Under the pieces are notes generated by a model. The model searched no databases. It was not told where the DNA came from and worked only from the letters and a program-made list of their open reading frames with translations. Below are positions 1,934 through 64,000 of a stretch of 64,000 bases of DNA, piece by piece (within the stretch, counting starts at the first letter, position 1; each line of letters starts with the position of its first letter). Both the position numbers and the translations under genes were made by a program. The DNA comes from a virus, in IMG/VR virus record IMGVR_UViG_3300021963_009201, positions 1 through 64,000 of that record; one strand, given 5' to 3'.

Positions 1934-2527
1934 ATGATAGATAGGATTGTTTTGGATTATCCAAATTGGTTTGTAGCTGGCGGAGCTGAAGAGAATTTCA
2001 AGAAGTACTTGACGCCTTACGCCGGTAAAAAGATTAAAGCATTACAAATAGGCGCTTATACTGGCGATGCAACACTGTGGATGTTTGATAACATTCTAAA
2101 TAATTCGGAATCAACTTTAACAGATGTTGATACTTGGATGGGCTCGGATGAACCAGATCATAAGCCGCTTAATTGGAAAAGTGTTGAAGAGGTATATGAT
2201 AAGAGATTTTTAACTCAAATTTCTTCAGGTAATCTCTTGAAGATGAAAATGACTAGTGATGATTTTTTTCTTTCAAATAAAGAAATGTATGACTTCATTT
2301 ACGTGGATGGCGATCATAAGGCCGAAACTGTTCTACGTGACGGGGTCAATGCGGTACAATGTCTTAACCCTTATGGTATAATAGCATTTGATGATTATAT
2401 GTGGAGTCAGCACAAGGGTCCAGCACACGACCCTAAGGCGGCTATTGACGCAATAAGGCTCTGTTACTCTGATCAATTTACGGTTTTAGAAATTGGACTT
2501 CAAGTATGGATGATAAAAAACAGCTAA
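1934..2527 (+). CDS. Class I SAM-dependent methyltransferase (Methyltransf_24-like)
   Basis: LQIGAYTG SAM-binding motif, VDTW, DFIYVDGDH and GIIAFDDY motifs typical of small-molecule/sugar O-methyltransferases. Confidence 0.85.
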   Translation: MIDRIVLDYPNWFVAGGAEENFKKYLTPYAGKKIKALQIGAYTGDATLWMFDNILNNSESTLTDVDTWMGSDEPDHKPLNWKSVEEVYDKRFLTQISSGNLLKMKMTSDDFFLSNKEMYDFIYVDGDHKAETVLRDGVNAVQCLNPYGIIAFDDYMWSQHKGPAHDPKAAIDAIRLCYSDQFTVLEIGLQVWMIKNS

Positions 2528-3579
2528 AAATAGCAGTCTACTGCATAACTCTAAATGAGGAACAATTCATTGAAAGATGGTACGAATCTGCGAAAGACGC
2601 GGATGAATTAGTCATCGCTGATACTGGGTCTAACGATAATACTGTAAAAATAGCGAAAAAACTTGGTATTAAAGTTTATGATATCTCTGTAAAGCCCTGG
2701 CGATTTGATACTGCCAGGAATGCGTCATTATCACTCATATCTTCAGATATCGATTATTGTATAGCGCTTGATGCGGACGAAATATTAGTTGATGGGTGGC
2801 GTAAGCATTTAGAAGAAATAGACAGAACCCTAACTAGACCAAGATACAAATACACTTGGTCATGGAACCTTGATGGGAGTGAAGGGTTAGTTTACGGTGG
2901 CGATAAGATACACTCAAGGTTTGGTTATCGATGGAAACACCCTGTTCATGAGGTTTTAGTTAAAGATCCCGACTCCCAAGAGGTTCAGGGTTGGGTTGAT
3001 TTAGAAATCCATCACCATCCCGATCAATCTAAGAGTAGGGGCCAGTACGGACCAATGCTAGCTTTGGCAGCAAAAGAAGACCCAGACGATGATAGGGTTG
3101 CCTTTTATTATGGAAGGGAACTAGTTTATATGGGCTTATTTGATCAAGCTTACGATCAGCTTAAGCACCATCTTTCGCTTCCAACTGCAACATGGAAACC
3201 AGAACGTTCGGCTTCAAAAAGGCTTTTAGCAAAATGTAGGCCAGATGAATCCGAGTACTGGCTTTTAAGTGCTGCTGCTGAAGCCCCTGACAGACGAGAG
3301 GCTTGGGTTGATTTAGCTCAAATGTATTACGAAAAAGAAAAGTGGATAGAGTGTTATTCTGCAGCTACTAGGGCGCTTAGCATCATTGAAAAACCTCTAG
3401 AGTACATATGTGACGCAGAAGCATGGGGTGCTAAGCCTCATGATCTAGCTGCAATATCAAGCTTTAGACTAGGCAATAAAGATTGCATCCCTCACGGCAT
3501 AAATGCCTGCACTTTAGAACCAAGTGATGAAAGACTTGCGAAAAATTTACAGTTTTATAAAGAGTTAGCAGAGGATTAA
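2506..3579 (+). CDS. GT-A fold glycosyltransferase family 2 with C-terminal TPR repeats
   Basis: N-terminal YCITLNEE...ADTGSND, F..ARN.SL, LDADE (DxD), HE motif; helical TPR-like C-terminus (FYYGRELV...A.....P.RREAW..LA..YY). Confidence 0.88.
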   Translation: MDDKKQLKIAVYCITLNEEQFIERWYESAKDADELVIADTGSNDNTVKIAKKLGIKVYDISVKPWRFDTARNASLSLISSDIDYCIALDADEILVDGWRKHLEEIDRTLTRPRYKYTWSWNLDGSEGLVYGGDKIHSRFGYRWKHPVHEVLVKDPDSQEVQGWVDLEIHHHPDQSKSRGQYGPMLALAAKEDPDDDRVAFYYGRELVYMGLFDQAYDQLKHHLSLPTATWKPERSASKRLLAKCRPDESEYWLLSAAAEAPDRREAWVDLAQMYYEKEKWIECYSAATRALSIIEKPLEYICDAEAWGAKPHDLAAISSFRLGNKDCIPHGINACTLEPSDERLAKNLQFYKELAED

Positions 3580-3923: not shown

Positions 3924-4360
3924 TGCCAATAGATAGCGCATTGACTCGTTACAGTTATTTAAGCCCTTCTTCTGAGCCTATGTTTTCTGTGGCTAATGAA
4001 AATGGTTTGCAAGTTTCTGCAACATCAAAAGCATCCTTTAACTCTGTTCTAGTTAATCCCGAAAATGCATGGAGCACATCTTTAAATAGATTCGTTGTTC
4101 CAGCAACTGGTCTTTATGAGTTCAACGTAAGTCTATTGTCGGCTAGTCCTGATAACACTGGTTTTTATTACGAATTTCGCAAAAATGGATCAGCAATGAC
4201 TTTGGGCACCTATCCCAGGGGTTATACGCGAATGCAATATACAGCAAATACGGCAAGCGGCGTGATGCAACTCTTATCTTCAGACTATATAGAGGTATGG
4301 ATCACTGGGGGGACAATGCATTCCTATCACTGTTTCTTTAGTTGTAAGAAGGTCGGATAA
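3923..4360 (+). CDS. C1q/TNF-like domain protein
   Basis: FNSV..N...AW......FVVPATGLYEF...F.KNG...T.SG...L...DYIEVW pattern. Confidence 0.7.
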   Translation: MPIDSALTRYSYLSPSSEPMFSVANENGLQVSATSKASFNSVLVNPENAWSTSLNRFVVPATGLYEFNVSLLSASPDNTGFYYEFRKNGSAMTLGTYPRGYTRMQYTANTASGVMQLLSSDYIEVWITGGTMHSYHCFFSCKKVG

Positions 4361-6152: not shown

Positions 6153-7679
6153 ATGCGCATTAACGATTTTTTCCCAATTCTAAATGCACCTAGCAAAACA
6201 TCTAAAAAACAGGCAACAATTTTACCCGTTGATGATCAAAAAGGTTTATCTAGGGCATTTAGGGTCGCTGCACTGGCTCTTGGATTTCAAAATTTTTCTA
6301 CAAGATCTTATACTGGGGATACGTTTGAGCTTCCTCCTTTTGATTTTGATAGAATTATACAGGCAATAGATACTGATTCATATGCCAAACAAGCTTTTTC
6401 AAAGTATAAGGAATTATTTTGGAAAGAAGGTTGGAATATTGTATCGGAAAATTCTGAAGCTAGGGGATATATTCTTCAAAGAATCGACTTCATGGAAGCA
6501 GCAATGAAGCGTCCATTTCAGGATTTCCTTACTGATGTTGCAGACCAGCTTGTTAAGTTTGGTAATGTTTTTATAGTTAAGGCGCGCGGAGATCTGCAGG
6601 AATATTTTCCTAGCCCATTAAATACAGGGGATAACCAAAAACCATTAATAGGCTATTACATAATCCCGACTGAGCGAGTTGAGATTATGCGTAATAAAAA
6701 TAATAAAGTCTTATGGTATAGACAACGCACAGATATGACAGGGCTTGGCTCAACCGATATGTCGCCAAAATGGAAGGCAGATGATGTCATACACATTTCT
6801 GCGGACCGTAAACCAGGAAGAGTATTTGGGACTCCATTTGTAGTTTCAGCTATTGACGATCTAATTGCACTTCGTCAAATTGAGGAAGATATACAAAATT
6901 TGGTACATAGAGAACTTTTTCCTCTTTATAAGTTTAAGGTCGGAACTAATGATCAGCCCGCCACCGACGAAGAGTTGGATAAAGCCGCGAATGAAATAGA
7001 AGGCCTTAGATCTGAAGGCGCTTTAGTAATGTCAAATAGGCATGATGTAGAGGTGCTTGGGGCAGATGGTAATGTGCTAGATGCTTCGAAGTATTTGGAT
7101 CACTTCAAGGAACGAGTAGCTATTGGTCTTGGAGTCTATCCACACCACCTTGGCATGACATCAAATGCCTCTCAGGCAATGACCGATCGTTTAGATCGTG
7201 CCCTATATGATAAGATTAAAGAGTATCAAAGAAAGTTTGAAGACTCTATGCGATTGTTCATACTCAATGACTTGTTGATAGAGGGCGGATTCGATCCATA
7301 TACTAATCCTGAGGTTGACGGCGTTTCAGACCGTTGTTATTTTAAGTTTAGTGAAATAGATTCTGATACGGAAGTTAAAAAAGGCGCCTATGTAATACAG
7401 AAGGTTCTAGCAGGAATACAAACAATACCTGAAGGTAGGCTTGAATTGGGCATGAAGCCCGATATGGATGTCACTCAAGTTTCCCCAAAGGCTGAACCAC
7501 AACTTTCGACTGGGGCGCAGAACAGTGCTGGACCAAAAAACGGAAGAAAAGGTTCTGATAATATTATTAGGCCAGCAAACCAGTACGGTACAAGAACATC
7601 TCCGAATATTAGGAGATCAGAAAATTTTGAACTAATAAATGAGATAGCTAGATTAGTTGATGATAATATAGAGGAGTAG
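6153..7679 (+). CDS. Portal protein
   Basis: 508 aa, upstream of protease and capsid; QLVKFGNVFI..., IIPTERVEI, VIHI..DRKPG..FGTP motifs typical of phage portals. Confidence 0.8.
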   Translation: MRINDFFPILNAPSKTSKKQATILPVDDQKGLSRAFRVAALALGFQNFSTRSYTGDTFELPPFDFDRIIQAIDTDSYAKQAFSKYKELFWKEGWNIVSENSEARGYILQRIDFMEAAMKRPFQDFLTDVADQLVKFGNVFIVKARGDLQEYFPSPLNTGDNQKPLIGYYIIPTERVEIMRNKNNKVLWYRQRTDMTGLGSTDMSPKWKADDVIHISADRKPGRVFGTPFVVSAIDDLIALRQIEEDIQNLVHRELFPLYKFKVGTNDQPATDEELDKAANEIEGLRSEGALVMSNRHDVEVLGADGNVLDASKYLDHFKERVAIGLGVYPHHLGMTSNASQAMTDRLDRALYDKIKEYQRKFEDSMRLFILNDLLIEGGFDPYTNPEVDGVSDRCYFKFSEIDSDTEVKKGAYVIQKVLAGIQTIPEGRLELGMKPDMDVTQVSPKAEPQLSTGAQNSAGPKNGRKGSDNIIRPANQYGTRTSPNIRRSENFELINEIARLVDDNIEE

Positions 7680-8013: not shown

Positions 8014-8802
8014 ATGAAAATATTAATTGGTAGCCCTGTATATCAGCGGTCATGGATTTTGCCAAAGTGGTTTGAGTGTATAGAGAATCAGTCTATGCCA
8101 TTAGAGGATATAGGTTTTATATTTGAACTTGGCCCTAATGACGATGAGACACATCAGATAATTTGGGACTGGCATATGCGTCATCCCGAAGTTGCATATT
8201 TTGATGCGGTAATACGGGAAGACTTGGGTCACTATACCCATCCAGATGGTCATAGGACGTGGACGAAAACCGCCTATTATAAAATGGTCGATTTAAGAAA
8301 TTCTTTGCTTGAAAAAGTTTCAGCAATAAAACCAGAAAAGTATTTTTCGTTAGATTCAGATTTAATACTTGAGGATACAACTACTCTAGAGAAATTGTAT
8401 CATTCTCTCAACCGCGACAGCGTTGATGCTGTTTCTCCTTTGTCGTACATGTTTCCAAAAGGAACCCAGTTTCCCAGTGTTATGACATGGATTGAGGGGC
8501 CGGGCAAAAGAGCTTCTAGGTCTTTAAACGATTATAAGATCGGAAGTAGTTTTAAGGCCGATGTGATTATGGCTGCAGTTATGATGAATCCAGATGTCTA
8601 CACTAATGTTAGGTACATATGGCATCCGCAAGGTGAAGATTTGGGTTGGTCAAGTGAGTGTCAGCGTAAGGGTTACAACCTTTACTGCATTTCCGATATA
8701 TATGTACCGCATATTATGCATAAGTGGATGCTCGAACAGTATGGGGCAATAGGTGACCCCAGAAAAGAAGAAGCATACAATAACGTTAATACCGCTTTAT
8801 AG
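8014..8802 (+). CDS. GT-A fold glycosyltransferase (GT2-like)
   Basis: KILIGSPVYQR N-terminus, LRN.LL, FSLDSD (DxD), GEDLGWS and C-terminal HIMH. Confidence 0.8.
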   Translation: MKILIGSPVYQRSWILPKWFECIENQSMPLEDIGFIFELGPNDDETHQIIWDWHMRHPEVAYFDAVIREDLGHYTHPDGHRTWTKTAYYKMVDLRNSLLEKVSAIKPEKYFSLDSDLILEDTTTLEKLYHSLNRDSVDAVSPLSYMFPKGTQFPSVMTWIEGPGKRASRSLNDYKIGSSFKADVIMAAVMMNPDVYTNVRYIWHPQGEDLGWSSECQRKGYNLYCISDIYVPHIMHKWMLEQYGAIGDPRKEEAYNNVNTAL

Positions 8803-11484: not shown

Positions 11485-12234
11485 ATGAGTTTAGCAAAGT
11501 TTCGTAAGGTTGGCAGCAAAACTGGTTCTGGTCGTTTCGTAGTTTCTGAGGGTATCGCCCCCGCAACCTACCTTCTTCCTCACCCAGCACTTCCAACCTG
11601 GTACACAGATGACGAAGATGATCGCTTCGAAATCGTAATTCCAAAGGGCACCATCCTTTCTGTCGTCAAAGACAGCAATGATGATTCCCGCATTGTTCCA
11701 GCAAATGGTTCTGGCTCCAGCCAGGCCTGGGGCGACGCAGACACAATCGACCTGGAGACTGGTGCTACACCCACCAATGTCGCTGGTGATGAAGACACTG
11801 TAACCGTCGCTGCTGGTACTGTCCCGATCGGCTGTGCCCAGTATGACCTTTATCGTCCATTCGATAAGGGTACTTCACAGGGTGCCGGTTGGATCACACG
11901 TGGCTATGTTGAATGGCCACTAGTTAATGGTGTTAATGCGGATCTTGTCCCCGGTGACATTGTTCGTGCCGACAAACTCGGCCGTGCAGTCAAGTTCACT
12001 AAGGGCACAGATGCACATTACCTTGCTGTAGGTACCGTAATTGAAGTTGAGTATTTCGCTACCAACTTTGATGATGGACTTCTGTCCTACATGCAGCTTC
12101 CTTCGGATCCCGGTGCTCTTAAGGAAGTTTATGAACTGACCAAGACTGGCCCTTACAGTGGCAAGCTTGGTATCCGTTCAAACCTTGACACCGCCAATGT
12201 TGTCGGTGCAGTTCGCGTAAGCCTAACTCTATAA
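11485..12234 (+). CDS. Capsid-associated (decoration/cement-like) protein
   Basis: Lies between protease and major capsid gene, has GAGAGG RBS and high-expression codon bias; beta-rich. Confidence 0.6.
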   Translation: MSLAKFRKVGSKTGSGRFVVSEGIAPATYLLPHPALPTWYTDDEDDRFEIVIPKGTILSVVKDSNDDSRIVPANGSGSSQAWGDADTIDLETGATPTNVAGDEDTVTVAAGTVPIGCAQYDLYRPFDKGTSQGAGWITRGYVEWPLVNGVNADLVPGDIVRADKLGRAVKFTKGTDAHYLAVGTVIEVEYFATNFDDGLLSYMQLPSDPGALKEVYELTKTGPYSGKLGIRSNLDTANVVGAVRVSLTL

Positions 12235-13409: not shown

Positions 13410-14765
13410 GTGGCTGATTTGATAGATGAATATACTGTTACCGATGTTTATGTAAAAATTAAATTCGGAGTAACAGTTAAAGTCTCGACAATTATAAATG
13501 CAAACTTCACACTTAACAACACAGATGCGACGCCATCTGCTATTGCTAATCCTTTTCGAGCGATATCTTTAGTTCGTGACTATAATTCTATTTCACGTAT
13601 TCTGTATCTGTATTTTTCTGACGGCGTCTTACAAAATGATACCAATTACAGATTTACTGCACAAAACTTAACTGACGTTTTAGATAACTCTATACCAAGT
13701 CAGTATTTTGACTTTGCTACACAAACTCTAAACGTAGACATAACAACAACACCAGAATATATATATCCTGAACCTGTTATAGTCGACCATGCTATATCTG
13801 ATTCTATTTTTTCTGTTCCTTTAAATAATTCTAATAATACAACAATTTTAGGTTTTATTTCTTCCTACCCTGAAAATGATTCTTATTATTTGTTTGAAGA
13901 TGAAAATAACGGACGAATTGAATTAATGTTTAATTTTAGTCCACTTAGCGCATATTTAGTCTCGCCTCATATTAAGGTTCAGAAAAGAGAAATAAAAAAA
14001 GCACCATCTAGGTGGATAGACGTGAACGCGCAGATTACACTAGATGGATCTGATCCCATTGTTTATGTGGACTTACCTTCTGTAGACCATTATCCAGATG
14101 CAGCCACACCATCGACCACTACAGTGTATAACCAGTCTGGTTATACGTATTTTGAAAATAATTATAAGTATAGAATTTTGCTTTCAAAAACATTAACAGG
14201 ACTTAATGAGGATTCTACACCAACAGAACACGCAATGATTTCGGATATTGAGCTTATTTATTGTGGTGTACTTGACCCTATGTATATAGACGTAGATGAA
14301 ATAGCTAGCTCGTACCCTGACGCTACTAAGGTGGAAATATCTGAAAATATACATTTCTTTTCTCAAGAAGTATATAAACTTTTAGGCTTAACTGAAGAGC
14401 CTACAGAAATGCCATTTGTCGCAATAGAGTACATTAAGGCGGCAACTGCTTGTAGCTTAGACAAGATCTATTCAGTTGGTTCCGGTTTTGGGAACTCCTT
14501 TACACTTGGTGACCTTACGGTTAATAGGCCAAAATCTGGTGCCAAAACACTTAATCGCGGCAATGCAAATTCTTGGTGCGAACTATCTTCGGTGTTAAGA
14601 GCTGAACTTCTTTCATCTACATCTAGAGGCGGTTTCAGGTCTGTCGTTAAAGGCAGTAAATACGAAAATCCAATTCCAGTTCGAAAAATTCGTGATATTG
14701 ACGCAACTGACACGATTGCTTATAATGTCGCTAGAATTCAAGATAATTTAGATGTTAAATTATGA
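13410..14765 (+). CDS. Virion structural protein (Ig-like N-terminal domains plus probable head-tail adaptor C-terminus)
   Basis: Position directly after the capsid gene; beta-sandwich-like N-terminal half, helical C-terminal half with a ..SFTLGDLTV motif. Confidence 0.5.
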   Translation: MADLIDEYTVTDVYVKIKFGVTVKVSTIINANFTLNNTDATPSAIANPFRAISLVRDYNSISRILYLYFSDGVLQNDTNYRFTAQNLTDVLDNSIPSQYFDFATQTLNVDITTTPEYIYPEPVIVDHAISDSIFSVPLNNSNNTTILGFISSYPENDSYYLFEDENNGRIELMFNFSPLSAYLVSPHIKVQKREIKKAPSRWIDVNAQITLDGSDPIVYVDLPSVDHYPDAATPSTTTVYNQSGYTYFENNYKYRILLSKTLTGLNEDSTPTEHAMISDIELIYCGVLDPMYIDVDEIASSYPDATKVEISENIHFFSQEVYKLLGLTEEPTEMPFVAIEYIKAATACSLDKIYSVGSGFGNSFTLGDLTVNRPKSGAKTLNRGNANSWCELSSVLRAELLSSTSRGGFRSVVKGSKYENPIPVRKIRDIDATDTIAYNVARIQDNLDVKL

Positions 14766-15145
14766 GTAGCTTTAAATCTGAATTTGATCAAATTTTAATA
14801 AAATGGGGACATAATATATATATACAAAGGGTCAAAGATAGATTCAATGGTGAAAATTTTGTGTATGAAAATATTTTCGAGAGGCATACAGTCCGACATA
14901 TCTCTGCGTCAAGTTTGCAAAACTCGCAAAAAGAAAATATAGAAGGAATTGTTTTTGATTCGAGTATGATTTATTATATGAGGTATGATGCCCACCCTAT
15001 GCCTGGTGATCGCATATATGAAAATATAGAATATTATCCAAATAATACTGTAACATATATCGTCGAAAGCGCAGCGCCAATGAGGGGTGAGTCCGGCCAA
15101 ATATCGTACTGGTCTGTTGGGGCCACTAAAGAAAGTCCGGCATAG
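14762..15145 (+). CDS. Probable head closure / head-tail connector
   Basis: 127 aa, position, P..GDRI.E motif typical of stopper-like neck proteins. Confidence 0.5.
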   Translation: MSSFKSEFDQILIKWGHNIYIQRVKDRFNGENFVYENIFERHTVRHISASSLQNSQKENIEGIVFDSSMIYYMRYDAHPMPGDRIYENIEYYPNNTVTYIVESAAPMRGESGQISYWSVGATKESPA

Positions 15146-16812
15146 TGCGTACAATAGTTTATGGTAATGAGATTACATTTCAAAAAAATTTTATTGATTC
15201 AAATGGAATATATATTGATCCATTAAATATTAATTTTTCTATAGTTAGAAATATAAACACCATACTTTATGGACCTTTTGTTTATAGTACTAGTTCTACC
15301 CCTGTGACGATATCGGGCAATTTTGAAAAAGTTGGTATAGGTGTTTATAATTACACTCAATTTATTGAAGATGTCATTGTGCCAGGCATATATGCGGCAA
15401 AATGGATAGCGGACGTAGATGGAGTCGATGAGGTATACTACGAGAATTTCCAGGTAATCGAACCGGAAGTAAGCACAAATAGGATTATCGACCCATCCTC
15501 TCTTTATGGGAAGATAATTGAAAAGCCACTCTATAGTGATTTAAGCTTAGGGGAGACAGACAGGATAGCCCTTATAGGGCACGCAGATGGTTTAGAGCTG
15601 AATACTCCTCATAGAGTTATTGACATACAGGAAACAATCAATACTTTAGGGGCGGACGAGGATAGTCCCCTTTTGCGCGGGATGTTTGAGGCCTATAATA
15701 TGGGCGCAAAGGATATATGGTTAATAGCTTCTGCCCCTATGTCGGAATATGTGCCCTACGACCAGATTGATGGCACATCAAGGAAGACGGCAAGAGTTGA
15801 TCTAAATAATCTAACTTTTTATCAAAAATATTCACAAAGGTTAGATGCCACTTACAGGATTTTAATGGAAGAAGATTTTCCGGAAATAGTAGTTCCACTT
15901 GAAGCGCCATTCTTGGATGCGGGTGACGTAGATTTTTTAACGCCACTACTATCTAACTGTCTCCAGAGGTACAGGAAAACTGGTAATGTATCAATCGGTA
16001 TTTTAGGAACAAGAATCCCTGCTAATACCGAAAATGTTTTTGAAAAATTAAACACAGATATGAGAATTTCCAGATTTGAAGGTGATTCTTACGTATATTC
16101 AACTAAAACGTTATTCTCTATATTAAGATACCATTATGGTATAGACCTTTTTTCTACTAGTTCTGAAACAAATATTTTAGACGGTCAAGATATGGGCAAG
16201 TTTGGTATGGTGGTTGTCGGTGAGGGTTTGTCAAAAGCTCCGCAGTTAGGCTATCCATACACCACTTCTTTAGCTGCCACCGTAGCTGGCCTCATGGCCT
16301 CGATGCCGGAAAATCAAAGTATAGTTAACAAAAAACTTGCAAGGATATCAGGTTTGGTGGGATATATATTCACCAAAGAAGAAGTGCAGGAACTAGCGAG
16401 AAAACGCCTTAATGTGGCGACCCTCACCCCGCTAGGTAGACGCGGTACGTCTTATCAAACTTTTATCGCCACAGATAATAGCTTAGCAAATGGTTGGCCA
16501 GATACGAATACTGACGATCAAAGTGCTTTTTGGGCTGTATCTACCTTAAGGTTAGTCGGGAAAATAAGTCAGCAAATAGTTGCGCTTGGTAGGCGTAGCC
16601 TAGGCACTATCGAGTATGCAATGTTTAAAGACTCTATTTATAGTTACTTAGATTCCTTGCAGTCAGATGGATTGCTTAAGGATTATAGATTAAACATATA
16701 CAGAGAACAAGATGAAAATAGGACTGTTTACGTCGACTTAATGTTGTATCCATATTTTACTATTAGGGAAATTTACTTCACTGTAGAAGTAGGCCCGGGG
16801 ACTGGTGAGTAA
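15145..16812 (+). CDS. Tail sheath-like protein (paralog 1) with N-terminal Ig-like domain
   Basis: Sheath N-terminal pattern (IALIGHA...LLRGMFEAYNMGAKDI) and C-terminal pattern (STLRLV...SYLDSLQ..GLL.DY...VYVDL.LYPYF.IREIYFTV). Confidence 0.7.
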   Translation: MRTIVYGNEITFQKNFIDSNGIYIDPLNINFSIVRNINTILYGPFVYSTSSTPVTISGNFEKVGIGVYNYTQFIEDVIVPGIYAAKWIADVDGVDEVYYENFQVIEPEVSTNRIIDPSSLYGKIIEKPLYSDLSLGETDRIALIGHADGLELNTPHRVIDIQETINTLGADEDSPLLRGMFEAYNMGAKDIWLIASAPMSEYVPYDQIDGTSRKTARVDLNNLTFYQKYSQRLDATYRILMEEDFPEIVVPLEAPFLDAGDVDFLTPLLSNCLQRYRKTGNVSIGILGTRIPANTENVFEKLNTDMRISRFEGDSYVYSTKTLFSILRYHYGIDLFSTSSETNILDGQDMGKFGMVVVGEGLSKAPQLGYPYTTSLAATVAGLMASMPENQSIVNKKLARISGLVGYIFTKEEVQELARKRLNVATLTPLGRRGTSYQTFIATDNSLANGWPDTNTDDQSAFWAVSTLRLVGKISQQIVALGRRSLGTIEYAMFKDSIYSYLDSLQSDGLLKDYRLNIYREQDENRTVYVDLMLYPYFTIREIYFTVEVGPGTGE

Positions 16813-17521
16813 AGTGACTTTAGAATTTAACACCCCAATTAACGCATCTTCGCCACTTAAGTACCCTAGGGAGCCATTAAGGGCGGAAAGTAATTTAAGT
16901 TATCTAGAGTTTATAGCGCTACTCAGAAAGCTCTGGGAAGACTCACACCCAAGCATACCATTCAAGCCGGTACAGAGTCAGTCATATGCCTTCACCCAAA
17001 TAAACCCAGAATGGGAGTGGGCTAATGATACATCGAACCCAAACGCTACAGACCCGGACAGTGCGGGTGAAGCAAAATATATACCCCACGATTGTATGAT
17101 GGTGTACTCTTTAGAGTTAAGGAAGCCGAACGCAAATGAACCAAAAATGAGGGTTCGCGAAGAAGTGGCGACTGAAGGTGATGTCAACTATCTGATACAG
17201 GGCCAGAGGTTTGAGAACTTAATTATTTTTTCCGCTTTAAGTAAAGGTGGTCCAGAATTAGCTGAAAGCGTTATTGAAGCTTTTGAAGATTTTATGCTTG
17301 AGCATACTCCAATTTTTAAACGGTTAGGTGTTTCCGAAATACTCTATAGTAGGAGAACGCCAGACGATGAGCAATCACGTTTTTCTGAAGACCTAGATAA
17401 AAGATCGGTAGCATATGTGGTAGTAATAGAGAAAGTTAGGGCTACGGAGATCGCTAAGATACAAGAGATTATGTTGCATATTAGGCAGTTTTTGTCAACA
17501 AATGTTGTAGACCCGGTGTAA
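16805..17521 (+). CDS. Probable tail terminator / neck protein
   Basis: Position; GQRFENLIIFS...AE...EAFEDFM...F.RLGV motif. Confidence 0.5.
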   Translation: MSKVTLEFNTPINASSPLKYPREPLRAESNLSYLEFIALLRKLWEDSHPSIPFKPVQSQSYAFTQINPEWEWANDTSNPNATDPDSAGEAKYIPHDCMMVYSLELRKPNANEPKMRVREEVATEGDVNYLIQGQRFENLIIFSALSKGGPELAESVIEAFEDFMLEHTPIFKRLGVSEILYSRRTPDDEQSRFSEDLDKRSVAYVVVIEKVRATEIAKIQEIMLHIRQFLSTNVVDPV

Positions 17522-18047: not shown

Positions 18048-21899
<3,852 letters not shown>

Positions 21900-26791: not shown

Positions 26792-28126
26792 GTGGCACTC
26801 CCCGGCGTTAATCTAGTTATCAAGGACCAGTTCCTTGGTGTATCTAGGACAGATATTCCAATCGGTCCTCGCGTAGCTATTATCGGTCGCAGAAAAGCGG
26901 CAGGTGAGTTAGCTACACCTAATACTGCAGGCACAAGCGCATTCTCAAACCCTGCATACCCATCTACCGTCAACCTTTCGGCAAATGTTGCCGACCTTGA
27001 CCCAGTTAGTCCAACCACGGAGCAGGAAGTTATCAACTACTTCGGTATTGGTTCGGACCTTCACCGTGGTTACATCGAGGCGCAGCGCGGCGGTGCATCT
27101 TTTATTACTTGCATTGCACTTCCTTCCGACACTGTTTACAACAATAATAGCGGAACAATCACAAGTGCATCCTACACTGCCTTAGGTGGAACAGACCTCT
27201 TTGCAGATGCGTTTTCTGCAGCAGAGGTTGCCCGTGCTGACATCATAGTTCCTTGGGGTCGCGGTTCTGGTCCAAATGATTTTCAGGATCCAGCAACACC
27301 TGGCGATGATGATCTTCATTACGGTTTCTTCGCAGATAACTCTGCAACTGTTGCTAATAGTTGGGCCTACAAGGTTGCTACACAATGTGCACGTATTACC
27401 GCTGATTCGCACCCATGTTTTGCAGTACTTGGCGTAAAGCCATATATCGGCATTTCAACCGTTGATGGCGGCATGACTCCTGCACAGGTGGTTACACACC
27501 TTACCCTTCCAAACTTGGCTGACAGGAATGGTACCGAATCTGCAATTCTTCTTGGACACTATGTTACTGTAGTGGCTACAGAAATTGAACCACTCAGGTA
27601 CAACCAATATGTGAACTTTGGTTTTGCAAACGGAGCTGCAAGCTATGCTGGTGCAGTTACCAAGCTCGACTCATGGTCAGCACCAACTGCAAAAACTATC
27701 TTCAATGTACAGCGCGTACGTTATAACCCAACTCGGACAAGCCAAACGAACCTAGTTGACCTTGGCGTAGTCCCTGTTGCGATTAACTTCAATCGTGTTC
27801 CTAACTGGATTGACGGCCAAACGTTTGCCAAGGATGGCTCAGACTACCGTAGGCTTACCACGCTTCGCATCGTTTATGATGCAGTTCTCCTGATCCGTCA
27901 AATCTCCCAAAAGTTTATCGGCGAAAGCGCAAGCACAGCAACTCGCAATGCCCTTGAAACGGCAGTAACATCTGGCCTTCGTGGCATGCAGCAGATGGGC
28001 GCACTACTTGCTAGCGATTTCACGGTAACATATATCGGACTAGAGAATAGGGCTATTATTGACCTTGTTCTTCAGCCGGCATTCGAACTTCGTAATATTG
28101 AAGTTCGCGTATCTGTACAACTATAG
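26792..28126 (+). CDS. Tail sheath protein (main paralog)
   Basis: GGAGG RBS plus GTG; IIGR...FG..SDLHRGY.EA; C-terminal RLTTLRIV...KFIGE...L.GMQQMG.L...F.V....IDLVLQPAFELRNIEVRV. Confidence 0.85.
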   Translation: MALPGVNLVIKDQFLGVSRTDIPIGPRVAIIGRRKAAGELATPNTAGTSAFSNPAYPSTVNLSANVADLDPVSPTTEQEVINYFGIGSDLHRGYIEAQRGGASFITCIALPSDTVYNNNSGTITSASYTALGGTDLFADAFSAAEVARADIIVPWGRGSGPNDFQDPATPGDDDLHYGFFADNSATVANSWAYKVATQCARITADSHPCFAVLGVKPYIGISTVDGGMTPAQVVTHLTLPNLADRNGTESAILLGHYVTVVATEIEPLRYNQYVNFGFANGAASYAGAVTKLDSWSAPTAKTIFNVQRVRYNPTRTSQTNLVDLGVVPVAINFNRVPNWIDGQTFAKDGSDYRRLTTLRIVYDAVLLIRQISQKFIGESASTATRNALETAVTSGLRGMQQMGALLASDFTVTYIGLENRAIIDLVLQPAFELRNIEVRVSVQL

Positions 28127-59220: not shown

Positions 59221-62200
59221 ATGAAAACTTATTTTTTACGACTAAAAAATAGTGATTTTACGCTTGTTGATAACCAATTGGTTACGGGTGTTATCGACCT
59301 GTACGACAACACTAATTCGGCGATGGCGACACCATCTTATGTTAATTATGTTACCGAAAGGACCACTTATGGAACTGACCTTTTGGGCGACAATACTTGG
59401 ACTGGTTTTAACGTAATAGATGATTCTTCTAGCCCATCTATAGTGACAGAATCAGGCTATGTTAAAGATGGTAGGTTTGTTGATACTACAGCTAAAATTG
59501 ATATATCAACTTGGGAAATTAATTTTATTAATACGCCTTTTGACATCAGTCCTTATCTTACATTTTACTATAACGATGTTTCAACATTAAATTTCCCTGA
59601 CGAGTGGCTATCTACTGATCGCGCCGGCAGGAACGATGGGTTATATTTACCGGATAGCCCAAGATACTGTAAGCTTGTATTAGATCTAGAATCTCAGTCT
59701 GACACTTCTTCGGTAGATTTTAATTTATTTATTAGGGTAAGAATTGGCAAGCCTGTAATAGCTCCACTCTACGATAGAACTCGTGGGATTTTGCGGAAAT
59801 TTCCTGAATGGATGGAATTACGGAATGATTCCGTAACCCAGGCAACACCTAGCCTTGCTACACCAAACACTATCGCTGGTTCATTTATTAATGCATTAGC
59901 AGGCGAATGGTTAGAGGATATATCTCGCGATTTAAGCTATATCCAAATTCAAAAGTTTATTGAGGAAGCGGATATCACTCAGCTTGCCTGGGCATATATA
60001 TGCAATGGCGTCCCAGACACTTTTGCAAGCGTTTCTGGTGATGGTGTAATGCTTTCTCGCGTCGCAACCGCAGAGGATTTTGTTGAGTTACTAGAAAGCG
60101 ATGATGCATTTTTCTGGGATGAAGACAGTAGTATAGTCTACACCCGAAAAGTTTATACGACCCTACAAATCGATGACTCAATTTATGCCCAGAATATTAC
60201 CCATATATGGAATTGGTTTGACGAGCACGGGCTAACTGTAGACCTAGAGCGCCATAAGGGTGAATCAAATGATTCTTTTAAGAAGAGAATCTTAGATGTA
60301 TACAAGAACAAGCCAGGCGTAGGTATTGAGTCGTTCAAGCTAGCCTTAAGGCGAGAGCTGAACTTGTGGCTATACGAGGGCGCAACGCCGGATTCATCCT
60401 ATGTTGGTGCAACACCCGAAGTCCTAGAAATTAGAGATATATTCGATCACACCGATTATGTAGGTTATGACGGGCTTCCTACTGATAAACTTAAGTATTT
60501 AATTTCGTATCTTTCGGATAAGTATCCAACAACATGGGGTTATTTCAGGTGGAATGAAGCTTATTGGGACATTGATGGGGAAAATTCAAAAGGTTTTACC
60601 TATATCCCAGGTAAATACGACGCAAATTTGTCGCCAGAAAATAGTTTATATTCTGGCGTGGGCGATGATTTAGACCTTTATATTCATAAACCGGATTATT
60701 TAACTGGCCCACAAAGTTTCAGTATTAGCGCAACTGCACGTGGTTTTGAAAAAAGTTCTATTACAGATTATTCCCCCATTAACCTCGATATAGAGATATA
60801 CGGAACTGCAGAAAAAAACGCCTACGTTAAGCAGGGTGTTGACACGTGGATTAACGCAAAAGCAACATCGTCGAGTGGTCGTGTTTACAGGGCAAATACC
60901 CTGATTGATATAGACCCAGAAACCCTACCATATAGCGGAAGTACACCAAACACTTATAGCGCATCTAGAAGACTGCCTATAGCTGATTACGAAAAGTTGA
61001 TACCTCAGCTTAATTGGTTTGATATTGAGCTTGAGCGGAGTATTGGTACATACATTAAGAGCCTGCAAATAAAGATAGCAGATATTACTGGCGATTATGT
61101 TTTTCAAATGCCAAGAGGATCAGTTTACAATTCTGAAAATCCATCTTTTGTTGTCGGTAATCAAATAACGCTTTATGCAGGTGACGCCTATATTTTTGGT
61201 ACAATTAAAGAAATATCTCAAACCTCTAATGTATATAACGACGAAATTGATTGGTTTGACTATTTAACAGTAACTAATACCACTAGCTACGGCAACATAA
61301 CTAGGCAAGATTGGACGATACCGAATTTACTTTACCTAGTAAACGAAGAAGCGACACCATCATTCCTTTTGGATTCGTTGGAAGTTGGTTTTGGAAAATA
61401 CAATCTAATACCTAACGATGTTATACAGAGTAATGAATCTGTTATTTTTTCTACTGTAACAACTGGCGCCACGCCAGTTACTCTCTATTATGGGGTTTAT
61501 GGTTTTGGCAGTGGAACAATATCTTCAGCGACTCCTGCAATTTCTATTGATCAAGAAATAGTTCTACATAGAACTTACTCCACTATTCATGGAACAGTTT
61601 ATTATGTGGATACTAATGTTTCCGGCGCAGCTCCTAATTCCTTAATTGAGGAAGCAAAGGGTATTGCTACAGAAAATGGCTTCGATGAATATATATTAGT
61701 CGAGATCTCTACCCTTACCGATGGGTGGCAGGAGACTGATGGCTGGGAAATATGGCTAGGCGGGTATTATGGGTTGAGTGATTATCCGACAGATAATTTT
61801 TCCCTATACCTTAATGACAATGTAGAATCAGCAACGCCAACGGACTATATATCATCTATCGCTGCAACACCGGGGACTATCTTGTCGTCCGATTTGCAAG
61901 GCAACCCTGAAGTTTTTGTTTCTTCTCAGGAGTTTACCGAAATAAATGATTATAGGTGGTATTCTGACAAGTTTAAATATAGTGTCACTTTAAACCGCGG
62001 GGATGCCCCCGCTAATCAATCTAGCTGGGTTATACCAACTCCAGATATCTTTTGGGATCCGTATATATCCACTCCATCTACAAAAGATATATTTATAGAA
62101 CTTATTACCTCTGACGATGAAGGAAATTTTGGGGCTTTTACAGTTGATTCGTTAGGTAATGAGATTTTTATACCTAAAGAAAATATATTAGTAAATGGAA

Positions 62201-64000
62201 CTAGTAACTGGGTAGATAAAAGCAGCCTATCACTAAATAGCGCATACTCAATCGGGGATACTGGACCAAGTGGTGGGATCATATTCTTAACACCCAATAC
62301 GCCAGGTAACACTACTGGTAGATATTTTGAGGCGGCACCAGTTTCGTCTGAGACAATTGCCTTACCCCCAGCGTTAGGGGGTGGAAGTGTAAATACGGTT
62401 GAATGGGCTCAGTCTGCCTTTTATGGTGAGTTGGTAGACGGCGCAAACTTAATAGATTTGTCGTCTGGACTTCAAAATACTGTAGATATTGTTGCTCAAG
62501 GTAATACAGAATTTTCCGCCGCCCAGTATTGTTACGGTACGACTATAGGTGGCAATTCAGATTGGTATCTACCATCTTTGGGAGAAATGCAATTTGTTTT
62601 AGATAACATTCTTTCTGGCGATCTTAGCGGAAAGACTTATTGGACTTCAACTCAGTACAGTGCCACAGAGGCGTATAGTATTCACTCCGTAAATGGTCAG
62701 CAGACGGGACTCAAAGACGAAAACAATTATGTTCGTCCAATCCGTAGTTTTGAACTTGTAACTCCGCAATACACGGAGGAAAGTGGATACGTACATGTCA
62801 TCGATTATTCTACCGACACTATAGAAATATCGTTAGATTTAACAGGTTTAACAAATTACCCAACTCAACGCGTTATTTATTCATCTTTTGAGGAAACAAT
62901 ACCGGATGTTGCTTCTGGGGTGGTGGATGAAAATGGGCCGTGGGTTAATGGGATAAAGCCAAGAAAAAACTCTGATAACTACAATTTTAAAACTTTAGAA
63001 TTTTCTAGGTCAGATTTTGGAATACCAAATGACGAAAACCACATAGTTACGTGGATTGGGGTAAGTTCTAGTAATGATTTAGTTGTTGTGTGGACCGACA
63101 ACAATACAGTTAAACCGGCTTTTGACGTCGCCTGGAAAAATAATAGTTCTTTTGCCCCTAATAGCATTATTGAATCGGGCAGCGGTTCTTACACTTACTC
63201 TAGTTTTACCGTAAGGGCAAAATTAAAGGTAGACGTAAATGTCCAATGGAACCCAAAAATGCATAGCGGTTGGTTTTTTGATGCAGGACGTGAATACTAT
63301 TCGTATGCCGACCCCATTGAAGAAATAGCGTCACCAGGCTTAGACGGTGCGACATTAAATAGTTTCTACGCTAGAAGTGTTGTGCGCCAGGGTGCGCCAG
63401 TAATCGCAAAAGCCTTAAGTGCTACTCCAGTTGATTTAAGGAGAGTTTCATTCTTTGATGACGATATTAACTTAACGCTTAAAAATAGGCAATATTTGTA
63501 CGGGAATGATAGTGACACTCTGTATCTGGCTTACGACGACGTTTACGATGCAACCGTTTCTGACGTAACTTCAGGAACTGTTTTGGGTACTAATTACTCA
63601 ACTTCTACTAATCAAATCAACATTGGTACAACGTCTTCTAAAGAAAATATTTACGAAATTCAATATAAGTTGAAAAACTCTTATTATGTAGATAATGAGT
63701 CTATTAGTCCGAACGGAAATTTGGTTTCTAAATTTGTGTTTGATAGCACACCTTCGGATGCAACCCCATATAGTATTACCTACGAAAATTCAATTAGAGA
63801 CAGCTCGACACCCATAGATATTCCATTAAACCCAAATTATACAAGTATTGAAGAAGGGTTTATCTTTTTAAGCTTCAATGAATATGAGGCTTCAACACCT
63901 ATTGTAAGAGTTAGTCCCGGAACGTTAGTTGCTGACGGTGAAGATTATGCGTTAGTGACTATTCATTCGGTAGATGTGAATGGCAACCCTAAACCAAATC
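59221..64000 (+). CDS. Large baseplate wedge / fibre-anchor protein (3' truncated, at least 1593 aa; absent from ORF track)
   Basis: I translated 59221-64000 with no stop codon. W.WFDEHGL...R..GESN..FK.RILDV...PG.G wedge motif; internal DUF1566/Lcl-type domain (62242-62751); Ig-like Big_1 start (LVADG...VTIHSVDVNGNP) at the window edge. Confidence 0.85.
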   Translation, partial: MKTYFLRLKNSDFTLVDNQLVTGVIDLYDNTNSAMATPSYVNYVTERTTYGTDLLGDNTWTGFNVIDDSSSPSIVTESGYVKDGRFVDTTAKIDISTWEINFINTPFDISPYLTFYYNDVSTLNFPDEWLSTDRAGRNDGLYLPDSPRYCKLVLDLESQSDTSSVDFNLFIRVRIGKPVIAPLYDRTRGILRKFPEWMELRNDSVTQATPSLATPNTIAGSFINALAGEWLEDISRDLSYIQIQKFIEEADITQLAWAYICNGVPDTFASVSGDGVMLSRVATAEDFVELLESDDAFFWDEDSSIVYTRKVYTTLQIDDSIYAQNITHIWNWFDEHGLTVDLERHKGESNDSFKKRILDVYKNKPGVGIESFKLALRRELNLWLYEGATPDSSYVGATPEVLEIRDIFDHTDYVGYDGLPTDKLKYLISYLSDKYPTTWGYFRWNEAYWDIDGENSKGFTYIPGKYDANLSPENSLYSGVGDDLDLYIHKPDYLTGPQSFSISATARGFEKSSITDYSPINLDIEIYGTAEKNAYVKQGVDTWINAKATSSSGRVYRANTLIDIDPETLPYSGSTPNTYSASRRLPIADYEKLIPQLNWFDIELERSIGTYIKSLQIKIADITGDYVFQMPRGSVYNSENPSFVVGNQITLYAGDAYIFGTIKEISQTSNVYNDEIDWFDYLTVTNTTSYGNITRQDWTIPNLLYLVNEEATPSFLLDSLEVGFGKYNLIPNDVIQSNESVIFSTVTTGATPVTLYYGVYGFGSGTISSATPAISIDQEIVLHRTYSTIHGTVYYVDTNVSGAAPNSLIEEAKGIATENGFDEYILVEISTLTDGWQETDGWEIWLGGYYGLSDYPTDNFSLYLNDNVESATPTDYISSIAATPGTILSSDLQGNPEVFVSSQEFTEINDYRWYSDKFKYSVTLNRGDAPANQSSWVIPTPDIFWDPYISTPSTKDIFIELITSDDEGNFGAFTVDSLGNEIFIPKENILVNGTSNWVDKSSLSLNSAYSIGDTGPSGGIIFLTPNTPGNTTGRYFEAAPVSSETIALPPALGGGSVNTVEWAQSAFYGELVDGANLIDLSSGLQNTVDIVAQGNTEFSAAQYCYGTTIGGNSDWYLPSLGEMQFVLDNILSGDLSGKTYWTSTQYSATEAYSIHSVNGQQTGLKDENNYVRPIRSFELVTPQYTEESGYVHVIDYSTDTIEISLDLTGLTNYPTQRVIYSSFEETIPDVASGVVDENGPWVNGIKPRKNSDNYNFKTLEFSRSDFGIPNDENHIVTWIGVSSSNDLVVVWTDNNTVKPAFDVAWKNNSSFAPNSIIESGSGSYTYSSFTVRAKLKVDVNVQWNPKMHSGWFFDAGREYYSYADPIEEIASPGLDGATLNSFYARSVVRQGAPVIAKALSATPVDLRRVSFFDDDINLTLKNRQYLYGNDSDTLYLAYDDVYDATVSDVTSGTVLGTNYSTSTNQINIGTTSSKENIYEIQYKLKNSYYVDNESISPNGNLVSKFVFDSTPSDATPYSITYENSIRDSSTPIDIPLNPNYTSIEEGFIFLSFNEYEASTPIVRVSPGTLVADGEDYALVTIHSVDVNGNPKPN

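Follow-up and report, generated by a model that had tools for sequence, protein, structure and literature searches.

An uncultured phage with a 190-kb genome encodes a giant baseplate wedge-like protein crowded with the tripeptide Ala-Thr-Pro (ATP), which likewise abounds in several of its other virion proteins and in about a hundred related protein clusters. On balance, we favour reading the underlying motif, [A>S]-[T>S]-P, as a sequon for O-linked modification, most probably glycosylation, in loops of virion proteins, with the glycosyltransferase gp8014 as its most likely writer. In the window, i.e., the whole stretch of 64,000 nucleotides that was analysed, and in related phages, the motif is enriched, obeys a three-residue grammar, is spread over unrelated proteins, has repeatedly been lost in a concerted manner and is co-distributed with gp8014. 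That it is selected at the protein level and is sequon-like in nature is well supported. If confirmed by experiment, it would be a defined O-glycosylation sequon in a phage, of which no earlier example is known to us. The features discussed are listed in Table 1.

Table 1. Motif sites, motif-bearing proteins and candidate modification genes, with positions in the window.
Feature	Position	Strand	Remarks
Giant baseplate-wedge-like protein, motif carrier (ORF 59221)	59221..64000 in window; ORF end 65085 outside window	+	1954 aa full length
17 [AS]TP starts in window, first half	59326, 59842, 59857, 60382, 60409, 60940, 61351, 61468, 61528	+	
17 [AS]TP starts in window, second half	61831, 61864, 62068, 63421, 63745, 63760, 63805, 63892	+	
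Paired conserved sites A208-T209-P210 and A213-T214-P215 (ATPSLATP)	59842..59865	+	Homologue conservation
Paired conserved sites A388-T389-P390 and A397-T398-P399	60382..60417	+	Homologue conservation
gp8014, candidate motif writer	8014..8802	+	262-aa GT-A glycosyltransferase; between portal and scaffold-like genes
Portal protein, anchor of GT-presence versus ATP test	6153..7679	+	Pfam Phage_portal
gp11485, capsid-module protein	11485..12234	+	One ATP in each of six genomes; orthogroup ATP 6 vs 0.57
gp13410, virion-module protein	13410..14765	+	Directly after major capsid gene; second most enriched family
gp15145, sheath-like	15145..16812	+	PHROG tail sheath; family enriched
gp16805, virion structural protein	16805..17521	+	PHROG 20284; family enriched
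gp17521, 173 aa	17521..18042	+	2 ATP + 2 STP, expected 0.12; 0/2000 shuffles reach 4
gp26792, "main sheath" of the initial annotation	26792..28126	+	2 ATP; orthogroup ATP 8 vs 1.3
Methyltransferase and GT2 cassette	1934..3579	+	Pfam Methyltransf_24, Glycos_transf_2

The wedge protein was assigned as a virion structural protein by PHROG and contains a baseplate J/gp47-like region at residues 171-526 (tblastn) and an Lcl_C-like domain at residues 1098-1175. The initial annotation had counted 12 ATP and 5 Ser-Thr-Pro (STP) in the 1593 residues encoded in the window (59221..63999), and all counts were reproduced, with the coordinates and codons as it had given them. The expected values are 0.35 and 0.69, respectively, and the enrichment survives shuffling, as none of 2000 shuffles reached 17 [AS]TP. 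In the full-length protein, ATP occurs 17 times against 0.54 expected (Poisson P 4e-20) and is far ahead as the top tripeptide, while STP occurs 5 times. The earlier claim of selection on the protein rather than a DNA repeat holds as well: in the wedge gene, all 17 occurrences of GCNACNCCN are in frame 0 of the + strand, the remaining five frames having none, and since it is confined to the coding frame, the signal lies at the protein level. The ATP codons are mixed, with variable wobble positions.

The ATP enrichment is a family trait. Among 113 proteins sharing the wedge N-terminal domain, ATP occurs 1251 times (54 expected) and STP 306 times (74 expected), and ATP ranks first among the tripeptides of every homologue from P0001 to P0024. 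The enrichment is conserved down to approximately 33% identity and is absent from neighbouring genes of the same composition. The grammar is strictly [A>S]-[T>S]-P (observed/expected): at position -1, Ala (961/41) and Ser (228/55) are enriched, all other residues being at or below expectation except Trp (25/13); at position 0, Thr (961/41) and Ser (130/40) are enriched and all others are at about 1x; at position +1, only Pro (961/41) is, the others again being at about 1x (Val 85/53). As position 0 is enriched for Thr and Ser alone, a hydroxyl residue is required, with Thr strongly preferred over Ser. A search for extended sequence context around the sites found none, and lineage-specific insertions also carry the motif (7 vs 0.7 expected).

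In the first conserved pair, T209 is kept in 18 of 24 homologues and T214 in 21, and in the second, T389 is kept in 22 and T398 in all 24. Six wedge homologues have only 0-1 ATP, the ATP-poor lineages being the contigs of P0065, P0069, P0070, P0080 and P0087. At the T209/T214 pair, ATP-poor homologues have exchanged Thr and retained Pro, and at the second site of the T389/T398 pair, which is otherwise invariant, they show ALP, AYP, AHP or SDP. Four or five lineages have independently lost all of their sites, with Thr replaced and Pro often kept; a single ATP-poor clade is rejected by the AU test (delta lnL 158, p 2e-53), and the ATP-rich neighbours of these lineages retain ATP at the ancestral columns. 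The motif is thus dispensable for the fold, and what requires it is probably a trans-acting factor.

In the predicted structure of residues 1-1000, all 12 motif sites lie in coil or loops with a pLDDT below the protein average, in line with the proposed loop placement, although 82% of the other Pro residues are also in coil and loop placement is expected for any motif that contains Pro. The segment of the T209/T214 pair is modelled as a low-pLDDT loop, and the T389/T398 pair as coil between helices 382-385 and 404-407.

Outside the wedge, the sites named in the initial annotation are all present: GATPT in gp11485, DATPS and AATPS in gp13410, NATPL in gp24127, LATPN and PATPG in gp26792, GSTPA in the capsid protein, STP in gp15145 and the site quoted for gp17521. 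Its claim of an enrichment throughout the outer virion stands for the wedge, gp17521, gp13410 and the pool of six genomes, whereas for the remaining proteins the signal in this genome alone is weak and becomes significant only when orthologues are pooled over the six genomes. In this genome, the rest of the proteome contains 13 ATP against 10.5 expected and the virion module minus the wedge 16 [AS]TP against 14.0, and only gp17521 and gp13410 (3 [AS]TP, P 0.003) stand out. In the pool, the families of gp13410 (ATP 13 vs 0.43, P 2e-15), gp16805 (9 vs 0.41, P 7e-10; none in this genome's copy), gp15145 (7 vs 0.57; 1 STP only in this genome's copy) and gp11485 are enriched. gp26792 has just a weak DUF2586 match under the Pfam cut-off. 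The internal giant proteins and the non-virion proteins show no enrichment in the pooled genomes. The flanking giant baseplate proteins contain 36 ATP against 44.6 expected overall and 15 against 27.6 in ORFs of at least 800 aa, and, as previously noted for the tape-measure-like, 1441-aa and hub proteins, the 2212-, 1441- and 3096-aa proteins have 0 ATP. The suggestion that glycan coats the whole particle is not borne out, as the motif is found chiefly on the baseplate wedge protein, with no enrichment in the major capsid protein.

gp8014 carries the invariant residues DSD (D114/D116), E208-D209 and H233. Its profile matches the GT1 domain of COLGALT1 (E 5e-9) and its precomputed annotation is PF13704; the Pfam and PHROGs scans run here gave no significant match. 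The gp8014 model (pLDDT 91.8) has COLGALT1 (E 3e-17, TM 0.72), LH3 and Mimivirus R699 as its top Foldseek matches. The COLGALT1 GT1 domain binds UDP-galactose and is non-catalytic in the human enzyme (PMC12003778). Each of the six records with a completeness of at least 90% has the gene, and it is absent from the syntenic slot in the ATP-free relatives G013 and G014. Based on a portal alignment (A5, 80 portal loci), 41 non-identical loci were compared: in their non-wedge virion genes, gp8014-positive loci contain 72 ATP against 9.9 expected and gp8014-negative loci 9 against 10.5, and an unbiased tripeptide scan places ATP on top in the positive loci. Relatives lacking gp8014 thus also lack the enrichment. 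On the portal tree, this co-distribution maps to a single change and therefore represents one evolutionary event, common to at least 15 other family-specific genes. The distribution of gp8014 does not track that of collagen-like genes, and two complete relatives have gp8014 without a collagen-like gene.

The glycosyltransferases of the window had been proposed as writers; of the two, only gp8014 is plausible as a family-wide writer. The GT2 at 2506-3579 and the methyltransferase beside it were set aside, as both are singletons of this genome among the seven compared. Their cassette adjoins a GPT collagen-like gene and, being specific to this genome, cannot explain a family-wide ATP motif. The GPT-rich collagen-like protein itself contains 0 ATP (2.1 expected), because the G-X-Y periodicity of collagen excludes the tripeptide. 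The glycosylation interpretation of the initial annotation is thus partly supported.

In the favoured mechanism, the motif would be a short linear recognition motif for O-linked modification of the Thr hydroxyl, and the modified sites would lie in loops of a specific group of virion proteins, chiefly the giant wedge. As a cytoplasmic, metal-dependent (DxD) GT-A enzyme, gp8014 would be expressed together with its substrates and would use a nucleotide sugar to glycosylate Thr, either ahead of assembly or in the course of it. Modification of Thr, a sugar as the modifying group and gp8014 as the enzyme responsible are all inferred; the outcome would be glycan decoration of the baseplate periphery and of some head and tail proteins.

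The best surviving alternative, which we nevertheless consider unlikely, keeps the sequon and assigns it to another phage GT2 (86-88.5 kb cluster) or to a cytoplasmic host glycosyltransferase, in which case host switches or disappearance of the other enzyme would account for the concerted losses. All 16 large records hold 2-4 GT2 genes, the six ATP-rich genomes share the GT2 86081 family as part of their core, five of them also have 87202, and the link between gp8014 and ATP has a single origin; the three to four further GT2 genes in these genomes are possible writers or may serve to extend the glycan. However, GT2 genes, including an 86081 homologue, also occur in G013 and G014, so their presence does not discriminate, and of the family-specific core genes missing from the ATP-free relatives, gp8014 alone is recognisable as a transferase.

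Less probable again is an unmodified structural or assembly element that sets a loop conformation or docks a family-specific partner such as a fibre or decoration protein. Approximately 10 wedge sites are almost invariant, many family-specific genes are of unknown function, and several sites precede helices or strands (e.g., T398-P-E-V before helix 404-407), Ser/Thr followed by Pro being a common helix N-cap. However, the tripeptide also turns up in folds unrelated to that of the wedge and in lineage-specific insertions, and in homologues that lack the Thr, both the fold and the A-x-P skeleton persist. Capping or docking does not predict Ala/Ser at -1 and a hydroxyl at 0 and nothing else, and 17 docking sites per subunit are implausible.

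Phosphorylation of Thr by a proline-directed Ser/Thr kinase of phage or host, or attachment of another O-linked group, ranks lower still and appears doubtful. The motif core, [ST]-P, is the minimal consensus of such kinases, but Thr exceeds Ser about sevenfold (961 vs 130), a preference unlike most kinases and like many O-glycosyltransferases, and no kinase was recognised among the family-specific core genes scanned. These genes include a ubiquitin-like operon with a JAB-domain protein, which would allow the speculative variant of ester-linked tagging; ubiquitin-like conjugation, however, normally targets Lys.

It is highly improbable that Pro is the target, hydroxylated or isomerised as in the Ala-Pro, Ser-Pro and Thr-Pro glycomodules of plant arabinogalactan proteins. 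In favour of this reading are the strict requirement for Pro (961/41) and the collagen-like proteins that the phage encodes; however, no hydroxylase was seen among the scanned family-specific core genes and no 2OG-oxygenase in the proteins scanned, other residues x in A-x-P are not enriched, and ATP-poor lineages often keep Pro and drop Thr, which points to Thr as the functional residue. An artefact of composition, a DNA-level motif or an internal repeat is refuted by the shuffles (0/2000), the in-frame occurrence with variable wobble positions, the lack of extended context and the conservation to approximately 33% identity with absence from same-composition neighbour genes, and nothing was found in its favour.

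The proposed O-glycosylation by gp8014 can be compared with several known systems. According to the summary in PMC11256854 of work on the mycobacteriophages Che8 and Rita (Freeman et al. 2023), their virion proteins are thought to be covalently glycosylated in the host cytoplasm by phage-encoded enzymes, forming a glycan shield; the glycosyltransferases lie near the genome 3' end and the named targets are the major capsid proteins. A phage-encoded enzyme and a covalent glycan on virion proteins would be shared with the system proposed here. In contrast, the gene for the candidate enzyme here sits between those for the portal and the scaffold, a baseplate protein carries most of the motif, ATP is not enriched in the major capsid protein and the acceptor is predicted to be a strict tripeptide. 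The phage group is also an unrelated one, uncultured, of approximately 160-230 kb and distantly related to Bacillus phage 0305phi8-36. The tail tube is also a target of mycobacteriophage glycosylation, for which we know of no defined short sequon.

The closest sequence and structure matches of gp8014 are COLGALT1/GLT25D1 (GT25), the LH3 GT domain and Mimivirus R699. Collagen glycosyltransferases have a GT-A fold whose DxD binds UDP-sugar and metal (PMC12003778), and they modify a protein side-chain oxygen, R699 being virus-encoded (PMC9546862). However, gp8014 consists of one domain of 262 aa and COLGALT1 of two domains, and the collagen enzymes act on hydroxylysine in collagen, whereas the phage collagen-like regions contain no Lys.

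Known sequons include N-X-S/T for N-glycans and D-(S/T)-(A/I/L/V/M/T) for Bacteroidetes O-glycans, and mucin-type GalNAc transferases use Thr with neighbouring Pro. The ATP motif resembles them in its three residues, its hydroxyl (or amide) acceptor, its location in loops that would be exposed and its occurrence in unrelated proteins; no description of A-T-P as the sequon of any enzyme was found in the literature searched. Bacteroidetes and PglL-type systems differ in that their site of action is the periplasm, a compartment from which phage virion proteins are absent. In BclA of Bacillus anthracis, GPT collagen-like repeats are glycosylated, and this genome likewise encodes GPT-rich collagen-like proteins next to a GT2 and a methyltransferase; however, that cassette is confined to this genome, whereas the ATP motif is family-wide.

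The virus record comprises 190,033 bp with a GC content of 0.418, and its first 64 kb, the window, hold a structural module with every gene on the + strand. For the wedge protein, a giant baseplate-wedge-like protein of this module, the initial annotation had claimed a strong enrichment of the tripeptide Ala-Thr-Pro (ATP), together with Ser-Thr-Pro (STP). Every one of its counts was correct on recount: the part of the protein encoded in the window contains 12 ATP and 5 STP as opposed to 0.35 and 0.69 expected, and none of 2000 shuffles of this part reached its 17 [AS]TP. In the full protein, 17 ATP were found as opposed to 0.54 expected (Poisson P 4e-20), with the other tripeptides far behind, and Ala or Ser precedes 17 of the 22 Thr-Pro (TP) dipeptides of the window part. 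A motif at the DNA level is ruled out, because all 17 occurrences of GCNACNCCN are in the coding frame, with none in the other five frames, and the codons at the ATP sites are mixed, with varying wobble bases. An internal repeat or domain is likewise ruled out as the source, as there is no shared context outside the three residues. The wider enrichment proposed for outer virion proteins is weak in this genome alone, in which only gp17521 and gp13410 (proteins are named after the start of their gene) are individually enriched, and the rest of the proteome contains 13 ATP as opposed to 10.5 expected; a general proteome- or virion-wide composition effect is thus unsupported by the counts.

Features of the structural module, the candidate enzyme and further protein families enriched in ATP
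Feature	Position	Strand	ATP (observed vs expected)	Remarks
Collagen-like fibre genes, sheath-like genes, giant tail proteins	window structural module	+		
Portal	6153	+		
gp8014 (candidate glycosyltransferase)	8014-8802	+		between portal and gp8850
Major capsid	12264	+		
Wedge protein	59221..65085	+		1954 aa, among giant tail genes
gp13410 family			13 vs 0.43	six genomes pooled
gp16805 family			9 vs 0.41	six genomes pooled
gp15145 family (sheath-like)			7 vs 0.57	six genomes pooled
gp187485 family			5 vs 0.24	six genomes pooled
gp11485 family			6 vs 0.57	six genomes pooled, one site per genome
gp26792 family			8 vs 1.3	six genomes pooled

Residues 171-526 of the wedge protein are similar to a region of Bacillus phage vB_BceM_WH1 (tblastn, 25% identity, E 5e-17), which is annotated partly as a hypothetical protein and partly as 'baseplate J/gp47 family protein', and they also resemble ORF162 of phage 0305phi8-36; the 50,697 deposited phage records yielded no closer relative. 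This similarity and the position in the baseplate module agree in marking the carrier as a predicted baseplate J/gp47 (T4 gp6-like) wedge protein. The protein also contains an Lcl_C/DUF1566-like domain (window 62200-62760, residues about 1000-1180) with 35-48% identity to dozens of otherwise unrelated proteins, and which has the look of a mobile module of the adhesin type. Where proteins share nothing but this domain with the wedge protein, the ATP excess is at most 2-fold (37 vs 18).

In a first search, all 24 true homologues (33-99% identity) contained 10-21 ATP each, and ATP was the top tripeptide in every one of them. An exhaustive search yielded about 100 clusters at 50% identity that have the N-terminal 550 residues in common; in 113 wedge homologues, 1251 ATP were counted as opposed to 54 expected, and 306 STP as opposed to 74. 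The relatives in viral contigs were ATP-rich without exception (80 of 80). About ten sites are near-invariant (T398 in 24 of 24 sequences; T389, T214 and T1402 in 21-22), and many others are lineage-specific. Even alignment columns occupied in at most 3 of 18 sequences show a 10-fold excess (7 vs 0.7). One ATP-rich homologue is encoded on a phage-sized contig (CAZBTQ010000001.1, 210,765 bp) whose assignment to a MAG with the label 'uncultured Iamiaceae bacterium' is either a binning artefact or a hint at the host.

Across the wedge family, position -1 of the motif is enriched in Ala (23-fold), Ser (4-fold) and Trp (about 2-fold), with the remainder at most 1-fold; position 0 in Thr (23-fold) and Ser (3.2-fold), with the remaining residues at about 1-fold; and at position +1 Pro alone is strongly enriched, next to a small excess of Val. 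The positions flanking the tripeptide carry almost no information. The grammar is strict, [A>S]-[T>S]-P, with a hydroxyl residue as the acceptor, and the motif needs no further sequence around it. Since a hydroxyl residue is needed and Thr is far preferred to Ser, this is as predicted by an O-linked modification. Proline-directed Ser/Thr phosphorylation of [ST]-P would address the same hydroxyl residues, but Ser would then be expected to serve at least as well as Thr, as opposed to the 961 Thr and 130 Ser observed, and no cognate kinase was found among the scanned family-specific genes, a subset of the ORFs. Among the scanned family-specific core genes, neither a kinase nor a hydroxylase was seen. 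O-glycosylation is the most likely modification, as judged from the sequences. The location of the sites in surface loops, also proposed in the initial annotation, agrees with a structure model of wedge residues 1-1000 (mean pLDDT 74.7) as far as secondary structure is concerned: all 12 ATP/STP sites lie in coil, compared with 60% of the other Thr and 82% of the other Pro. Model confidence at these 12 sites is lower, and their position in the model is compatible with accessible loops without being decisive.

For a comparison of whole genomes, five more ATP-rich genomes and the distant ATP-free genome G013 were placed beside this genome. The wedge protein is the top ATP outlier in each ATP-rich genome, and G013 contains 9 ATP in total as opposed to 9.8 expected. 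When orthologues of the six ATP-rich genomes were pooled, further enriched families emerged (see table), all in the head-tail module. In 48 non-identical loci, the neighbours of the wedge gene show no ATP enrichment (36 vs 44.6), and flanking ORFs of at least 800 aa are even mildly depleted (15 vs 27.6, P 0.007). Two lineage-specific carriers have no orthologue in this genome, namely a 1618-aa protein with 11 ATP as opposed to 0.8 (G001, 202772-207628) and a 925-aa protein with 8 as opposed to 0.45 (G004, 101457-104234). The motif recurs in unrelated proteins, in new insertions and, according to the model, in loops, as a short linear modification motif should, and we regard it as well supported and highly probable that [A>S]-[T>S]-P is sequon-like.

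Six wedge homologues (P0065, P0069, P0070, P0080, P0082 and P0087) contain only 0-1 ATP within 1446-2343 residues. At the otherwise invariant G-A-T-P-E site they carry ALP, AYP, AHP or SDP, and at other conserved sites AEP, SRP, AVP or AKP, so that Thr is gone and Pro is often kept, from which it follows that the fold does not need Thr. In trees of the N-terminal domain, these proteins take at least three positions, and their monophyly was rejected by the AU test (delta lnL 158, p 2e-53). ATP-rich proteins interleaved with them retain ATP at ancestral columns, which argues for retention in the interleaved proteins and 4-5 separate losses around them. L236 has 4 ATP in 479 residues, yet is 67% identical to the ATP-poor P0065. 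Concerted and repeated loss of all sites is the signature expected if the value of the motif depends on a trans-acting factor. TP is itself rare in some ATP-poor wedge proteins, including P0065 and P0080 (2 in 1552 aa vs 6.6; 2 in 1458 aa vs 3.9), which hints that the motif was actively purged rather than merely decayed. The ATP-poor wedge proteins come from Logan and ENA assemblies only; none was found in viral contigs, in one GTDB scan or in one metagenome (JGI) scan.

The six ATP-rich genomes have 36 gene families in common, 16 of which are without a BLAST hit in G013, and gp8014 is among these. Its residues D114-S115-D116, E208-D209 and H233 are invariant in 37 sequences, and profile comparison gave a match to the human COLGALT1 GT1 domain (E 5e-9), in which the DxD motifs align. 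Our own Pfam scans gave nothing at E ≤0.01, and precomputed annotation lists PF13704 for all homologues. The structure model (pLDDT 91.8) gave at least 500 Foldseek matches at E ≤0.001, with only glycosyltransferases and collagen-modifying enzymes that contain GT-A domains among those listed; closest of these are COLGALT1 (E 3e-17, TM 0.72), LH3 and Mimivirus R699, followed by GnT-I, Mnn9, SpsA, TarP and GalNAc-T2. The model thus predicts a GT-A Rossmann-like fold with a DxD metal/nucleotide-binding motif and conserved acidic and His residues. In a tblastn search of the 50,697 phage records, the sole match was a putative glycosyltransferase of Methanobacterium virus PhiF1 (24% identity); no cultured relatives were found. 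The other annotatable clade-specific core genes encode an AAA+ ATPase, a JAB-domain protein and an SSB; outside the window, the ATPase and the JAB-domain protein of the ubiquitin-like operon (116962-118542 and 122482-123753 of this genome) belong to the core of the ATP-rich clade and gave no BLAST hit in G013. The 868-aa protein that follows gp8014 (window 8850-11456) has a Hva1_TUDOR domain and corresponds to two ORFs of 309 and 382 aa in G013.

The initial annotation had assigned the modification to the glycosyltransferases of the window in general, of which gp8014 is the most likely candidate. This genome has four Pfam GT2 genes, and the presence or absence of any GT2 (PF00535) is uninformative as a discriminator, as it occurs in 16 of 16 large related records, including ATP-free ones. 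The GT2 and methyltransferase genes at 1934-3579 are ruled out as a family-wide writer, as both are unique to this genome. gp8014 is found in 12 of the 16 large records, among them each of the six with a completeness of 90% or more. The ATP-rich records G008 and G009, which lack it, are no counter-examples, since these contigs are truncated, with the portal missing too and the head modules cut off. In the ATP-free G013 and G014, the portal is present and gp8014 is missing; in G013, the gp8850 homologue starts 12 bp after the portal, with no glycosyltransferase between.

To extend this comparison, 80 portal-anchored loci were fetched, ranked towards G013, and the glycosyltransferase was scored by an HMM built from the gp8014-family alignment. 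ATP was counted in the + strand genes that follow the portal; the wedge gene lies outside this region. Retained were 41 non-identical loci in which 1000 aa or more follow the portal. The 20 loci with a gp8014 homologue contain 72 ATP as opposed to 9.9 expected (7.3-fold, P 6e-37), and the 21 loci without it contain 9 as opposed to 10.5; STP is enriched in neither set. In an unbiased tripeptide scan, ATP ranked first in the former and outside the top tripeptides in the latter. Five further records without gp8014 (about four lineages) encode baseplate J homologues of 290-373 aa, which span the same core as wedge residues 171-526 and have 0-1 ATP, without the sites. The expectation that relatives lacking the enzyme would also lack the enrichment was thus borne out for gp8014, as one evolutionary event only: its state changes once on the portal tree, and the perfect association therefore cannot single out gp8014 among the clade-specific genes. 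Dependence on a writer is addressed by this perfect co-distribution over 41 loci, although of single origin, and by the 4-5 concerted losses of the motif.

A role of gp8014 as a collagen-modifying enzyme was rejected, since G001 and G003, both complete, encode gp8014 and an ATP-rich wedge protein and no collagen-like ORF. As the phage collagen-like regions also contain essentially no Lys (one, in a short Gly-rich run), collagen is not a likely substrate. Collagen-like proteins that consist of G-P-T, G-A-T and G-S-T triplets and are free of Lys are encoded at 18048-21899 and 127-1890 in the window and at 101694-102368 and 188384-190033 of this genome, the largest with 981 aa of repeat; of the six ATP-rich genomes compared, no more than three have such genes. 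A plausible second glycosylation target lies in the Thr-rich Y positions of these proteins, on which the adjacent GT2 and methyltransferase cassette (1934-3579) possibly acts. Directly 3' of this cassette lie genes for a small C1q-domain protein and a fibre with an endosialidase-chaperone (Peptidase_S74) C-terminus (window 3923-5217).

gp8014 remains the most likely writer, as an unproven candidate. The combination of an [A>S]-[T>S]-P sequon, O-glycosylation and gp8014 as its writer is the reading towards which we lean, by a modest degree. More tentatively, and somewhat less likely than not, A-T-P could be a genuine O-glycosylation sequon of three residues, with gp8014 as the small, soluble GT-A enzyme of the phage that reads it. 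On this reading, the enzyme would work in the cytoplasm, on virion proteins that are folded or still folding, and the system would serve a large clade of uncultured phages with genomes of about 160-230 kb. Its repeated discarding as a whole would suggest a role in an arms race, e.g. in shielding the baseplate from host or environmental factors.

Sequence data alone yield a strict acceptor grammar of three residues and predicted sites in the hundreds, with the motif-free homologues as a natural control set and one small candidate enzyme, so that the question can be put to a direct test without a cultured phage. If the prediction is true, sequon-directed cytoplasmic O-glycosylation exists in bacterial viruses, the baseplate periphery is indicated as the part of the particle in need of modification, and a minimal pair of enzyme and tag becomes available for glyco-engineering and site-specific glycosylation in bacteria.

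Glycosylated phage particles are known only from a few mycobacteriophages, for which we are aware of no defined acceptor rule; to our knowledge, no sequon-directed system of O-glycosylation has been described in a phage, and the one proposed here would, if true, be the first. Searches of the literature for Ala-Thr-Pro as a sequon gave nothing relevant. Among the structural neighbours of gp8014, Mimivirus R699 is a collagen glucosyltransferase (PMC9546862), and in human COLGALT1 the DxD motif of the GT1 domain binds UDP-galactose, yet GT1 is not the catalytic domain (PMC12003778). The GT25 enzyme COLGALT1 consists of two domains, GT1 and GT2, with the catalytic EDD motif in GT2, whereas gp8014 is a single domain of 262 aa that matches GT1 only; the acceptor of COLGALT1, hydroxylysine in the collagen triple-helix repeat, does not apply to gp8014. 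Virion glycosylation as such has been described in mycobacteriophages (PMC11256854); here, a putative glycosyltransferase gene lies in the structural module of an uncultured phage. New would be an acceptor defined as a tripeptide, the enzyme family of gp8014, a modification aimed mainly at the baseplate, and the clade of phages concerned.
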